Source: a virus
DNA: 14,337 bases
Virus genome (UHGV): UHGV-1688991
Strand: one strand, 5' to 3'
Part shown: one piece after another, positions 9,723-14,337 of the stretch
Position numbering within the stretch: the first letter of the stretch is position 1
Layout of the letters: every line of letters starts with the position of its first letter
Position numbers and translations under genes: made by a program
The notes under the pieces: model-generated
What the model was told of the DNA's origin: nothing
Databases searched by the model: none
What the model saw: the letters and a program-made list of their open reading frames with translations, nothing else

Positions 9723-11456
9723 TTAAAGCGAGCGGATCCCATAGGACTCAATGTGGTCAGACAGCGTGTCTTCTTTCTCGTACAGCATGGCTCTGCCAAC
9801 CGCCATAATCAGCGCAACTGCACCATCGATTTTGTTTTCCGCCTGCTCTTTGACGGGCTTCACCACATCATCGTTACCCGGAATGGTTTTGCCGACCACG
9901 TTGCCGATACACCAGGTCATGATGGGATTGCCATCATGATGAAAGCGCCCCGATTCAATTGCCGCTTCCAGCTCTTTCATCGGGTCGGACATGTTGGTGT
10001 AGTTCTGAATGATAGTGATGGGGTTCAGGTCTTCATCAGCAAGGTCATGTGACAACCCGGTCGCCCCGAAGGGGTCGATGGGTGACTCACTGACCGGGCT
10101 GATTTTGTTCGCCGCTTTGGCCTCCTCGAGGATGTAGCGATAATCCACCTCCGCACCATCGGTAACGGTCAGAACGCCCATTTCCACCCATTTCTGAAAG
10201 CGTTCGGCTGTCCGTCGATCTTCATTTTTCTCGACGCTGTACACCGTGTCATACGGTACCCAGAAACGCGGGGCCACACTGTAGTAATGCGTTTTACCGT
10301 CAATCTCGCGGGTATAAAGTCGCGCCATGCTGTTCATATCCAGCTTACGCGCCAGGTCAAAGGCCAGAATGCACGGCTGCCCCTCGAACTGCTCAAGGGT
10401 CAGTGATTTATCCTCGCAGCTCTGCCAGCTTACCAGGTTGAAATACGCCGAACGCGCCGACACCCAGATATTGAGGTGTTTTGTTTTAAAGACGTTTGCC
10501 AGACGGGCGTTATTTTTCGCACGCTGTTGCTGACTTAACAAAAACTCACGGTAAACCGACACCCCGATATTCGGGTTGGCTTTTTCCAGCACCTGTGGGT
10601 TGGTCCAGTCGTCACCTTCGTCAACGGTATAGATGATCCCGAACAGTTCATCGTTAGGCACCGAGCCGTTGAGCATCTCGATGACTTCCCGCCGCTTGTC
10701 GTAGCACGGCCCCTCAATGTTGTACCCGGCGGTGGTGATGGCCCACATCAGTGGCTGACGTCGCGCCCCCATCCCGGTAAGCATTGTGGTATAAAGCGCA
10801 TCGGTGGCATGCTCGTGATATTCATCAACCACGGCACAGTGGGGTGATGAACCATCACCGGGGTTGCCGATCAGCGGTTCAAACCGCGCGCCATCCTCCG
10901 GACGGTTCATGTTTGAGGCGTTAACCTCAATCCCGAACGCTTCCGTCAGCATGGGTGTGCGTTTACACATCAGTCGCGCCGGGCGAAAGACTTCCCACGC
11001 CTGTTTCTCTGTCGTGGCACCGGAATACACTTCCGCGCCAAACTCGTTATCACAGGCAAAACAATACAGGGCAACACCGGCAGAGATTGCCGATTTGCCG
11101 TTCTTACGGGGAATTTCGGTATACACCTCCCGGAAGCGGCGCAATCGGGTGCCTTTATTGACCCAGCCAAACGCACAGCAGATCACAAATAGCTGCCACG
11201 GCTCCAGCGTGATGGGCATCCGTTTGAATGCCCACTCACCCTTGGTATGCGGCAACAGCTGAATAAATTTGGCGGCCCGTTCAGCCAGGTCCTTGTCGAA
11301 GCGGTAACGAAACGACTTACTTTTTTCCGCCATCAGGTCATCAAGATGGCGCTGGCAGGCCTGAATCACAAACTGGCAGGCCACAATCTTTCCGCGCACG
11401 ACATCCCGGGCATACTGATTTGCAGCATTTACGTTGGGGTAAGATTTCCGGCTCAT
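9723..11456 (-). CDS. Terminase large subunit
   Basis: 577 aa with Walker A-like PRKNGKS, Walker B-like AVVDEYHE and C-terminal nuclease-type acidic motifs. ATGA overlap with terS. Confidence 0.92.
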
Positions 11457-11947
11457 GATTCGATAATTTTCAGAAACGGGTTAGTGGCTTTCTTCTGCCC
11501 CGCCAGGCCAATCAGACGCTGGCGGCTGCTGGGGTCGAGTCCGAGCATTGCCCCCGTGCTGCTCATCTCGGACTCCTGTTCTTTTTTGGCGGTCAGCTCC
11601 GGATTTTTGACCCTGCCGCCCATTGCACCGGTGATGGTGTTGCCCTGTATGGCAATATTTTTCACGGCACGTCGCCAGAACTCATAGGCCACGCACCACC
11701 GCTCAAGCACCGCGAGGTCAGTCACGCACAACAGGCCCTGACCGCAGAGTTCTTTGGTTGTCAGTTGCCACATGATCGTGGCGAGAGGGAGATTTTCTTC
11801 TGCGAACCACTCCGGTGGCTCAACACCTTTGATGGGCGTAAAAACAGGTTCATCTTTATTCAGGGCTCGCTTGCCGGGGTTTCCGGCCAGCGCCTTGCGC
11901 GCCGTTGGCTTGGGGCGACGCCCGGAACGCCCCACCGTTCCAGCCAT
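11453..11947 (-). CDS. Terminase small subunit (P27-family-like)
   Basis: About 164 aa, basic N-terminus ([13 protein letters not shown]), immediately upstream of terL. Start revised to ATG 11947 with SD AGGAG 8 nt upstream; the track's GTG 11956 would fall on this SD. Confidence 0.8.
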
Positions 11948-12072
11948 ATGCGGCACTCCTGGTTAAATTTCATTTTTCGCGGGTATAAAAAAACGATGGG
12001 GCGGGCAGTCCGGAAGACGTCAGGCCGCAGGGATTTGACCCGCCCCTCCCCTCAGGCAGTTGAGAATTATTA
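11948..12072. other. Candidate cos / packaging-initiation region
   Basis: The only non-coding gap between HNH and terS. It has a GC-rich core with inverted GGGGCGGG (11999-12006) and CCCGCCCC (12040-12047) arms, next to an AT-rich tract (11975-11995). The position matches HK97-type cos sites. Confidence 0.35.
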
Positions 12073-12423
12073 TCACTTCAACCGTTCACGGGCCGTCTTC
12101 GCCTTATGACACGGCCAGCACAGGCTCTGCAGATTACTGTCGGCATCAGAGCCGCCATGCGCTTTAGGGATGATGTGATCAACGGTTTTCGCTTCACGCA
12201 CCACACCGGCACGCAGACATAACTGACACAGGCCTTTGTCACGCTTCAGCACACGCGCGCGGATAACGTCCCACTTCGAACCATAACCGCGCTGGTGACG
12301 GGACTGACCTGGCTTGTATTGCCTCCAGCCTTCGCTTTTGTGGCTTTCACAATAGCCTGACGGATCTGTGGTGGTATGGCGGCAACCGCGAACACGGCAG
12401 GCTTTTGGGATTCGTGGCGGCAT
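12073..12423 (-). CDS. HNH endonuclease, terminase-associated
   Basis: 116 aa; N-terminal Cys cluster (CRVRGCRH...C) and C-terminal DHIIPKAHGG...NLQSLCWPCH HNH motif. Positioned immediately upstream of terS. Confidence 0.85.
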   Translation of the reverse strand: MPPRIPKACRVRGCRHTTTDPSGYCESHKSEGWRQYKPGQSRHQRGYGSKWDVIRARVLKRDKGLCQLCLRAGVVREAKTVDHIIPKAHGGSDADSNLQSLCWPCHKAKTARERLK

Positions 12424-12835
12424 ATGTACTAATCTCCGATTTATCCAAATTTCACTGCCATAATGCCGACATTCTCTGCCATTATTGGCTCCGTTTATCC
12501 GTTAAAAGGGATATCAGTTAAGTTATCCCGTGTAGGGTATAAGCCATTGTCGAGACCACTCATTGAATGGTCTCTGCAATAACCGATGTCTTTCCATCAG
12601 TCCGCCACCACAAAGAATCTTTTTTGCCATAAGGCAGGAGGTTCATCTTTCAGTGGCTGCCAGTGTTATTTCCCCACTTACTGGCTTGGGTTGCTTCGTG
12701 GTACTGCCGTTAACTGGTGGCGCACAGATTTAGTTAAATCTGTTCTCGCATGATCCAGCTTTTACATACCCGGATTGTGGGGATGCAAATCACGGTTTCA
12801 TTATCAAGCCCACCAGTAGATGGGCTTTGTAATGG

Positions 12836-13093
12836 CTACTTCGCTTTTGCTTCCGCTCGCTTACGCCGGCGCTCTTCTTTCCTCTCGGCTTTTGCCATGT
12901 CCATGAATGCCTGCATGATCGAGTTCCGCATCATGTAGCTAACAAAGTGATGATTGACACAGCCGTTGAGGCGCAGCTGCTCGCCAAACTCATCCACCGA
13001 GGCCAATGCTTCCATCATGCCCTTCTCGCCTTTCATGAACTCTGAGAAGTCGCGCCCCGCTCTGGAGGCGCATTCAATAACACGATCACTCAT
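12836..13093 (-). CDS. Hypothetical protein (85 aa), translationally coupled to the KilA-N gene
   Basis: ATGA start/stop overlap with the upstream gene at 13090-13093. Highly charged C-terminus (ERKEERRRKRAEAKAK). No family recognised. Confidence 0.5.
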   Translation of the reverse strand: MSDRVIECASRAGRDFSEFMKGEKGMMEALASVDEFGEQLRLNGCVNHHFVSYMMRNSIMQAFMDMAKAERKEERRRKRAEAKAK

Positions 13094-13587
13094 CCCGGAA
13101 GCCCGGGGATCGTAATCTGCAGCTGGTTAGCCAGGGAGTTAATCTCAGCGACCAACACTGGCTTCGTATAGCGCCATGCTGCCAGCCCTTGTCCGCAGAA
13201 GCTCGCCATGTCTTTCTTCTGGTCAAACTCATGACATTTCATGTTGAGCTGCGCACTTAAGCTGTTGCGATGCTGAAGTTCTCCGGTGAAGTAGTCATCG
13301 AGGACTTTATAGGCCGCGTACTTGAACCCGGGGTTTAACCAAGCCGCATAATCGTAAGCAACAAACTTCCCGCCATATGTTCCACCGTGTACACCGCGCT
13401 CAGTAAAAACCACAGATTCGTGGTTTTTCTCCAGCTCGGCTAAGAACTCTTTGGTCTGCTTGTTTCGCAGGTAGTGGTAAGGCGATTCAGATTCACTTTT
13501 ACCACTGGCTTTCCACATATCAGTGAGGCAGATCATTCCTGATTCATCAACACGGATCGGTGTATTAAAAAGCGTGATTGCTTTCAT
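13090..13587 (-). CDS. KilA-N domain protein (antirepressor-like)
   Basis: The N-terminal ~100 aa match the KilA-N pattern (...ICLTDMWKASGKSE...RGVHGGTYGGKFVAYDYAAWLNPGFKYAAYKV...). Start set at ATG 13587 (SD AGGT upstream); the track's longer ORF from 13656 has no SD. Confidence 0.6.
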   Translation of the reverse strand: MKAITLFNTPIRVDESGMICLTDMWKASGKSESESPYHYLRNKQTKEFLAELEKNHESVVFTERGVHGGTYGGKFVAYDYAAWLNPGFKYAAYKVLDDYFTGELQHRNSLSAQLNMKCHEFDQKKDMASFCGQGLAAWRYTKPVLVAEINSLANQLQITIPGLPG

Positions 13588-13738
13588 AGCGTCTTTACCT
13601 TTTAGAAAGATGAGCCTGTTCGCACAGAAAAGCCGCCCCGAGATGGTCGCCACCATATACGGCAGTTCTCAGGCTCAACTTTCTGAAAGGCTCGGGTGAT
13701 GTAATATGCGCGTGAGATGCGCTGTGAAATTCAGATGT

Positions 13739-13762
13739 AAAAAAAGCCCCGCATCGCGAGGC
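13739..13762 (-). terminator. Rho-independent terminator downstream of Rz/Rz1
   Basis: The minus-strand RNA would form GCCUCGC-GAU-GCGGGGC (7-bp stem with one G-U pair) followed by UUUUUUU. It lies 33 nt after the Rz stop. Confidence 0.55.
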
Positions 13763-13794
13763 TCATTAAATGGACTTTGTGATTTGCAAAAAAA

Positions 13795-14337
13795 TTATTT
13801 CAGGCATTGCGTCCTGATGTATTCCTGCAGGTAGTTAACCTGCGCGGTTATCTTGTCGATTCCACTTCGGAGACGGTAATAATTGAGTTCAGCATCTGCT
13901 GTAAGTCCTGGGCTTTCTCCATCGCCCATGCCGCTGGCTCCGGTCGTTGACTTTGCACAGGTGGCGGCGACTTGCAGGCGCTTACGCCCAGCAGAAACAT
14001 CAGCACGGAGACTTTCGATAGTCGCGTTAGCATCAGCAAGCTCCTTTGTGTATCTTGCGTCGAGTTCTGCTACATCACGTTGACGCTTCCGCATGTCAGC
14101 GATGGTGGCGTTCGCCTTCTCCAGTTCACTGGCCTTGTTATCGCGCTGCTCTTTGTAGGCGATTGCGTTATCACGGTAATGATTAACAGCCAATGACAGG
14201 CAGAGGGCATTCTTCACACCATCCTCATCCACATGAGTCGTAATGTAATCGGCTACCTGCTTCAATTCATCACCAGCATTGCCCATTGCTACACCTACAC
14301 CTGCCTTCTTGATGATAGAGATGTCGTTGCCGCCATC
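13795..14337 (-). CDS. Rz: Chimeric ORF, 5' end outside window: Cof-type HAD hydrolase C-terminal segment fused in frame to an Rz-like i-spanin lacking its TM anchor
   Basis: From about 14200 downward the protein aligns with lambda Rz along its length ([10 protein letters not shown]...YTKELADA...GRKRL...). Upstream, the same frame reads [45 protein letters not shown], the C-terminal motif of Cof/YidA-type HAD phosphatases. The frame is open to the window edge. Confidence 0.6.
13848..14033 (-). CDS. Rz1: Rz1-like o-spanin lipoprotein, embedded in the Rz frame
   Basis: In the +1 frame inside Rz. Signal peptide with lipobox (LLGVSAC) followed by a Pro-rich region ([13 protein letters not shown]). 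ATG 14033 has SD AAGGAG 7 nt upstream. Confidence 0.7.

Follow-up and report, generated by a model that had tools for sequence, protein, structure and literature searches.

A conserved, hairpin-bearing spacer between the accessory and packaging genes of an HK97-like lambdoid prophage

The window analysed here is a stretch of 14,337 nucleotides from the viral genome UHGV-1688991, and it represents an HK97-like lambdoid prophage whose late operon is encoded by the minus strand. Here we report on a 412-nt gap in that operon (12424-12835), which is probably a conserved, structured intercistronic linker that contributes hairpins to the late mRNA for its stability or processing, holds empty slots for accessory genes and serves as a joint for recombination. 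The gap is conserved among related phages, several of which carry genes in the slots, and two of its hairpins are paralogous, covary with a clear strand bias and occur in recombinant forms.

The late-operon gene order around the gap is as follows, in the direction of transcription:
13795-14286, minus strand: Rz spanin
13090-13656, minus strand: KilA-N/ORF11CD3 protein
12836-13093, minus strand: hkbL-like ORF of 85 aa, the upstream neighbour of the gap (PHROG 875, E = 3e-54; HK620 hkbL annotation)
12424-12835: the gap, between the hkbL-like ORF and the HNH endonuclease gene
12073-12423, minus strand: HNH endonuclease, the downstream neighbour, which opens the HK97-type packaging module (Pfam HNH, E = 2.8e-16; HK97 annotation)
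11453-11956, minus strand: small terminase (TerS)
9723-11456, minus strand: large terminase (TerL)

The portal, protease and capsid genes come after the terminase genes, and this surrounding order makes the gap the junction between the lysis and accessory genes and the packaging and head module. The operon is tightly packed, as had been noticed from the sequence alone: 12836-13093 overlaps or abuts 13090-13656, and the same holds for 9723-11456 and 11453-11956. Further, smaller non-coding gaps in the window lie at 11957-12072 and 13657-13794. The first of these is a short interval from the HNH gene to the small-terminase ORF and is likely the cos region here, since the HK97 cos site sits between the same two genes.

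All four inverted repeats that the sequence-only reading had placed in the gap were found at the positions given, and IR1, IR2 and IR4 proved longer than first noted, with arms at 12495-12513/12524-12542, 12546-12562/12564-12580 and 12799-12812/12821-12834, respectively. Perfect inverted repeats with a stem of at least 6 bp and a loop of at most 12 nt reached a nested count of 9 in the gap, whereas 2,000 dinucleotide shuffles averaged 1.1; they were thus about eight times commoner than in the null (P about 0.0005-0.001); their density over the whole window is about 2.5 per 412 nt. Folding of the 412-nt gap was compared with shuffles and gave z = -6.4 for the minus strand, which is that of the late mRNA, and z = -3.7 for the plus strand. 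The hairpins are, in transcription order:
12799-12834, minus strand: IR4, copy 1 of a post-ORF hairpin family, sense CAUUA-CA-AAGCCCAUC-UACU-GGUGGGCUU-GA-UAAUG
12724-12743, minus strand: IR3, inside an optional 62-bp segment, about -10 kcal/mol on either strand
12546-12580, minus strand: IR2, copy 2 of the post-ORF hairpin family, sense AUUG-CA-GAGACCAUUC-AAU-GAGUGGUCUC-GA-CAAU
12504-12529, minus strand: IR1, sense GGGAUA-N10-UAUCCC followed by UUUUAA, fold of -8.3 kcal/mol

The two members of the family fold better in the sense orientation, by 3.5-6.7 kcal/mol: IR4 gave -19.9 kcal/mol (z -5.3) against -16.4 for the antisense, and IR2 gave -22.0 kcal/mol (z -6.2) against -15.3. The TAG stop codon of the hkbL-like ORF lies 1 nt ahead of the IR4 hairpin span and 2 nt ahead of its A-U pairs. 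IR1 is weakly terminator-like because UUUUAA comes directly after its sense-strand stem; with a 6-bp stem, a 10-nt loop and four U it is a weak candidate, and the terminator scan did not call it. On the sense strand no U-run follows IR2, IR3 or IR4, and the sole consensus terminator match in the gap is a weak plus-strand site. Two of three IR1 variants are sense-strand wobbles, and the common A-to-G variant of IR3 likewise creates a sense-strand G·U pair.

IR2 and IR4 share the sense consensus (C/U)AUU(A/G)-CA-stem-loop-stem-GA-(U/C)AAU(G), the stem consisting of 7 bp plus 2-3 further pairs. The two differ in the inner stem, whereas the outer 4-bp stem, CA/GA internal loop and flanks are conserved. 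The entire HK620 genome has exactly two copies of the motif, as has the window, and every one of them lies in the gap and on the sense strand. Across loci, hairpins of the IR4 type stand behind at least eight different ORF tails, 2-34 nt past the stop codon. Variants were gathered by the conserved flanks and at least 5 of 7 stem pairs, and in the resulting alignment (45 distinct variants) 96.7% of the cells pair, a percentage that the filter inflates. Six of the 13 pairs change on both sides, and the covariation score was 0.383, compared with 0.202 in shuffles (none of 500 reached 0.383) and 0.06-0.17 in slid controls. The filter does not explain these double changes or the strand bias, which is seen in 68 alignment cells: in the sense orientation they hold G·U or U·G, and on the opposite strand they would be C·A mismatches. 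At one stem position C-G, G-C, A-U and G·U all occur; the IR2 stem runs from GAGACCA/UGGUCUC in the window through GAGGCCA/UGGUCUC in HK620 to GAGGCCA/UGGCCUC in P22, and a single hairpin stem of phage L holds three wobbles. Both marks of a cis-acting RNA hairpin are therefore present, namely compensatory pair changes and a strand asymmetry that tolerates G·U. An earlier suggestion that the repeats are RNA processing elements is borne out as far as RNA is concerned, by the compensatory changes and the sense-only G·U pairs, and processing itself is a putative role. At about 15 bp, interrupted by an internal loop, the hairpins are short and would be marginal as RNase III substrates.

The same pattern bears on the suggestion that the repeats are operators, that is, protein-binding DNA sites controlling late or accessory genes. 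Palindromes do lie upstream of genes here, and anti-defence loci are often under repressors that bind inverted repeats. The four repeats are, however, unlike one another in sequence, there is no promoter in the gap to regulate, and stems that covary between constant flanks and tolerate G·U intermediates indicate pairing in RNA and not recognition of a DNA duplex. We therefore hold operator sites to be very improbable.

The spacer recurs at 90-98% identity in more than 200 phage records (megablast, blastn), including HK620, HK97, HK022, many mEp phages, Sf6, CUS-3, P22-like Salmonella phages and Stx phages. A 501-nt query spanning the gap was matched in 2,644 of 5,426 complete E. coli genomes, where the annotation covers the flanking genes only. 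Its position is constant, always with post-lysis accessory genes on one side and packaging or head genes on the other. The sequence-only reading had named a lack of conservation among relatives as grounds for dropping the repeats, and they are in fact conserved. In the curated records of HK620, HK97, Sf6 and phage L the spacer is unannotated or carries only tiny software-predicted ORFs, and our literature search turned up nothing on the spacer as such; what it yielded were the papers on pid, which cover an insert in P22.

Mapping of about 170 homologous loci onto the window gave sharp, recurrent homology boundaries, at 12473 and at 12710-12724. In transcription order the gap consists of IR4, the optional 62-bp segment, a 135-nt core, a gene slot, IR2, IR1 with its UUUU, and a linker. 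The parts other than the hairpins are:
12725-12786, minus strand: optional 62-bp segment with IR3, present in HK620 and JEP4 and missing from HK97, HK022 and Dewey
12585-12719, minus strand: core spacer ("B-right"), 135 nt, non-coding, nearly invariant among relatives
12583-12585, strand not assigned: empty gene slot, which holds gene 66 or a 23-codon ORF in relatives
12489-12500, minus strand: linker copy 1, GGAUAAACGGAG, the Shine-Dalgarno context for downstream genes in relatives
12441-12482, minus strand: 13-codon mini-ORF (MAENVGIMAVKFG), a remnant of the hkbM start region, with the homology boundary at 12473
12434-12446, minus strand: linker copy 2 (GGAUAAAUCGGAG), the Shine-Dalgarno sequence of the HNH gene

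In P22, CUS-3 and Stx phages the core starts immediately behind the stop codon of rha, and it extends to the gene slot. At the other end of the spacer the gene that follows linker GGAUAAACGGAG varies: it is hkbM/DUF2560, directly after the spacer, in HK620-type phages, and elsewhere the small terminase or one of several others. The mini-ORF is the leftover hkbM start at the join of the HNH/packaging module. Within 12434-12500 the linker GGAUAAA(C/U)CGGAG and the start motif AUUAUGGCAG(A/U)GAA each occur twice, about 21-55 nt apart, and a direct repeat (D1) spans the duplicated start region adjoining linker copy 2. The duplicated linker and start motif around the mini-ORF look like the scar of an HNH packaging module joined to an hkbM-type start.

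Two places in the spacer take up genes. Gene 66 (Pfam PF13876, Phage_gp49_66) sits exactly at the 12584 slot in Sf6, Huey, 611R6 and Stx2_112991, and in 35 IMG/VR loci the slot holds instead a 23-codon ORF with a strong Shine-Dalgarno sequence. In Sf6-type phages the gene 66 stop codon is immediately followed by IR2, which also stands behind the 23-codon ORF where that is present. The latter (MSAEGFNNPSKFRDEWDSSVKSK; L130, L157 and about 33 other IMG/VR loci) has the Shine-Dalgarno sequence GAAGGAG and an Sf6-type hairpin behind it; it matched no family and is a candidate micro-protein. The second place is interrupted in P22, where about 630 bp (P22 nt 40357-40998) are inserted between 12496 and 12524, across IR1. 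The insert contains an N-terminal fragment of a small terminase and, on the opposite strand, an ORF that is the published pid gene. The fragment, at 793-981 on the minus strand of our P22 locus in the orf80-rha interval, resembles the N-terminus of a Terminase_2-type small terminase (MALTDKQEMFCHEYLIDLNATQAAI...), and next to the pid moron it looks like a relic of module exchange. At the P22 pid site, related phages carry either nothing or another insert (Cenens et al. 2013, PMC3573128), and the promoter, long 5' UTR and terminator of pid were mapped by Wolput et al. 2022 (PMC8835761).

The pid moron locus thus occupies the same genomic site as 12496-12524 of the window, which differs from it in having no pid gene, promoter or terminator. 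In the window, as in HK620 and HK97, neither slot is occupied. Different genes, or none, are found at one point between conserved flanks, as at a moron hot spot; a classical moron with its own promoter and terminator is not present in the window, which has no insert and only the weak IR1 hairpin. Since relatives fill the slots, the locus is a recognised hot spot for accessory cargo, of which the window has the empty form. In phage Huey a gene for a Tad2-like protein lies upstream of the spacer, and the Huey genes called "anti-CRISPR" by pharokka (997-1497 and 382-762 of that locus) belong to the Tad2-like (Thoeris anti-defence 2) and the Gp49/Sf6 gene 66 families. These genes suggest that the locus collects anti-defence cargo.

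Exchange has also taken place within the hairpins. One locus (L084) has a hybrid hairpin, in which the 5' flank found with the 23-codon ORF is combined with a stem and 3' flank of the IR4 type, and in two others (L259, L263) an IR4-type 5' arm is joined to the IR2 3' flank, with everything between deleted. These hybrid and deleted hairpins show that the hairpins are actual exchange points.

The level of constraint was estimated on loci gathered through the hkbM protein, independently of the spacer, and chosen for identical protein. Nucleotide diversity in the non-coding 210 nt was about 0.00-0.035, compared with 0.069 at the third codon positions of hkbM; the most conserved part of the gap is the core, with about 0.015-0.03. 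Because the non-coding diversity is below that of the adjacent hkbM third positions, purifying selection is suggested, and part of the low diversity could come from recent horizontal spread and from the collection of loci by exact-match anchors and filters. No helix in the core was supported, variation being too small for testing most of them; in the only variable one, a hairpin at 12659-12685, a common T-to-C change breaks pairing without compensation. The core also holds no ORF that survives indels and no promoter.

These data have to be weighed against the possibility that the spacer is a linker at the DNA level only, or junk, kept as a patch for homologous recombination and with passive hairpins that have no function in RNA. 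The sharp, recurrent mosaic boundaries and the hybrid and deleted hairpins would fit such a patch, as would the gene remnants nearby (the TerS N-terminus in P22 and the hkbM start here) and the fact that lambdoid modules are often more than 90% identical through recent exchange. Double changes at 6 of 13 pairs and wobbles on the sense strand only are, however, unexpected without selection for structure, and diversity lies below that of neighbouring synonymous sites. We consider a purely passive linker rather unlikely.

A species-level scan of genome collections returned only 9 contigs, which are from E. coli, Shimwellia and apparently mis-binned metagenome bins; since the core was found only there, the spacer module belongs to enterobacterial lambdoid phages. 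Two degenerate viral scans for divergent homologues contributed little. Exact copies of the core lie on short contigs (L249, L250, L251, L254, L255 and L256) binned as Cellvibrionaceae, Nanosynbacter, Bacillota and Collinsella metagenome-assembled genomes, and these contigs are almost certainly DNA of enterobacterial phages that ended up in the wrong bins.

The coding potential of the gap is low. It had been described as free of minus-strand ORFs above about 30 aa, which is roughly right: the longest are 35, 28 and 22 aa, and the first exceeds that limit. The gap ORFs gave no real match to PHROG (best E = 0.011), and PGAP called no gene or pseudogene in the gap across E. coli genomes. The 35-aa ORF was rejected as a gene because it is out of frame with gene 66 of Sf6-type phages and a poly-A indel breaks its frame; a plus-strand ORF of 26-56 aa was rejected because its start and stop are unconserved. 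When protein-level colinearity with an intact homologue was sought in PHROG and PGAP, only the 13-codon hkbM remnant qualified. The idea of a decayed protein-coding gene, also raised at first reading, thus applies to this mini-ORF at 12441-12482, and the P22 version of the spacer has its TerS fragment. For the bulk of the gap it fails on the PHROG result, on the lack of a PGAP pseudogene in thousands of E. coli genomes, on the same non-coding form in more than 200 phages, and on poly-A length changes and the gene 66 insertion, which are tolerated and disrupt every candidate frame. That the gap as a whole is a decayed gene is very unlikely.

A small regulatory RNA would be another way to account for a strongly structured non-coding region, either as an independent gene or processed from the late transcript, with its 3' end at IR1 and the four U after it. 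Lambdoid prophages are known to encode sRNAs (PMC4104026; bioRxiv 10.64898/2026.05.13.724894), which counts for this explanation. In a sigma-70 promoter search of both strands, however, the best score was 6.3, against a window background median of 6.9, and a covariance search with Rfam, as the sequence-only reading had proposed, found no family at the gathering threshold in the window or in 14 related loci. The Rfam models of the prophage sRNAs AgvB, AsxR, Esr41 and STnc100 did not match the gap or homologous loci, and ARAGORN found no tRNA or tmRNA in the window. The published Pas sRNAs are located near the Q and holin genes, elsewhere than the gap, and insertion of a gene in the middle of the region (12584) leaves both flanks intact. 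With no promoter above background, no Rfam family and a single weak terminator-like hairpin, the earlier option of a small-RNA locus has lost ground and we regard it as improbable.

For the structured linker that we favour, the following mechanism can be proposed. The gap would be transcribed on the minus strand within the Q-antiterminated late mRNA, which would fold there into a series of stable hairpins. IR4 and IR2 would each sit just past the stop codon of whichever accessory ORF precedes them and would most likely act as intercistronic RNA structures, either as barriers to 3' exonucleases or as processing sites. In this way the hairpins could determine how long the message of the upstream cistron lasts and separate its fate from that of the head-gene message. 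At IR1, whose stem is followed by four U, transcription by polymerases without the Q modification may be weakly terminated ahead of the packaging genes. At the DNA level, the conserved sequences would offer patches of homology for swaps of cassettes and of whole modules.

Several known systems invite comparison. The operons of E. coli contain intercistronic stabiliser hairpins and REP elements, for example between malE and malF. IR2 and IR4 resemble these in being stable stem-loops past stop codons, in a polycistronic RNA, with no U-tract and with a repeated, conserved structure; they differ in having no similarity to the REP consensus and only two copies per genome at one locus, and their stabilising activity is presumed. 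The lambdoid boundary or linker sequences (the Susskind-Botstein idea; bsq of Sf6) are likewise short conserved sequences at the edges of mosaic modules where exchange occurs, but the present linker is long (about 250-350 bp), mostly non-coding, and covaries at the level of structure; the Sf6 record has no bsq feature in the spacer region. With integron attC sites the gap hairpins share a place directly 3' of each promoterless cassette ORF and the swapping of cassettes at the hairpin. Unlike attC, they come with no IntI integrase in the window and no R/L boxes or GTTRRRY core, they are far shorter, their flanks are AUUACA/GAUAAU, and their G·U pattern is that of RNA, not of single-stranded DNA.

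A bolder proposal is that the post-ORF hairpin (AUUACA-stem-loop-stem-GAUAAU) is a dedicated cassette-boundary signal recognised by a specific factor, and this we hold to be distinctly improbable. If it were true, every anti-defence or moron ORF would bear the hairpin at its 3' end, the factor would be a protein of RNA processing or stability or one that acts in recombination, exchange would be directed by the signal in the manner of attC, and the 135-nt core could belong to the same device.

The P22 pid moron site, intercistronic stabiliser hairpins and lambdoid boundary sequences were thus already known. The conserved flanking spacer and the hairpin family are, as far as we found, absent from the pid papers (PMC3573128, PMC8835761), and the family, its paralogy and its covariation appear to be undescribed in the searchable literature. 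The finding leaves the general understanding of lambdoid phages unchanged. It does show that an unannotated spacer, found in about half of the complete E. coli genomes searched, marks a site of swappable accessory genes (pid, Gp49/gene 66, Tad2-like), and with the conserved flanks and hairpins such cargo can be located easily in prophages. In addition, the hairpin family would be a clean example, from a phage late operon, of RNA structure between cistrons and of a conserved structure with a second use as a joint for recombination.

Two further likenesses were followed and set aside. A resemblance to CRISPR repeats (GGAUAAACGG to type I-E and TTCACTGCC to type I-F, by eye) was rejected, as it amounts to a match of 8-9 nt with no repeat hairpin. 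The best Rfam score in our searches was that of Proteo-phage-1 (RF03044) against 12655-12690 on the minus strand, with 16.8 bits and a threshold of 42. Its consensus and this segment have a 5' CCCAAG and a 3' GAAAUAACACUGGCAGCC in common, and both hairpins of the model are missing from the segment; the 3' 17-mer of Proteo-phage-1, AAAUAACACCGGCAGCC, exactly matches a common variant of window 12655-12671. This lead was also rejected, because the true members start the late operons of unrelated phages, and the shared 17-mer was taken as chance. A scan for the 3' consensus recovered genuine members (74-82 bits); they belong to other phages, where a tRNA, a Q-like gene or the terminator of that gene precedes them. 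In IMG/VR they were seen at L134:13372-13451, L156:10353-10433, L161:10242-10319, L146:5030-5109 and others, downstream of NinG-like and Q-like genes and upstream of holin-like and terminase genes, at the start of the late operon in the manner of a late-leader RNA.
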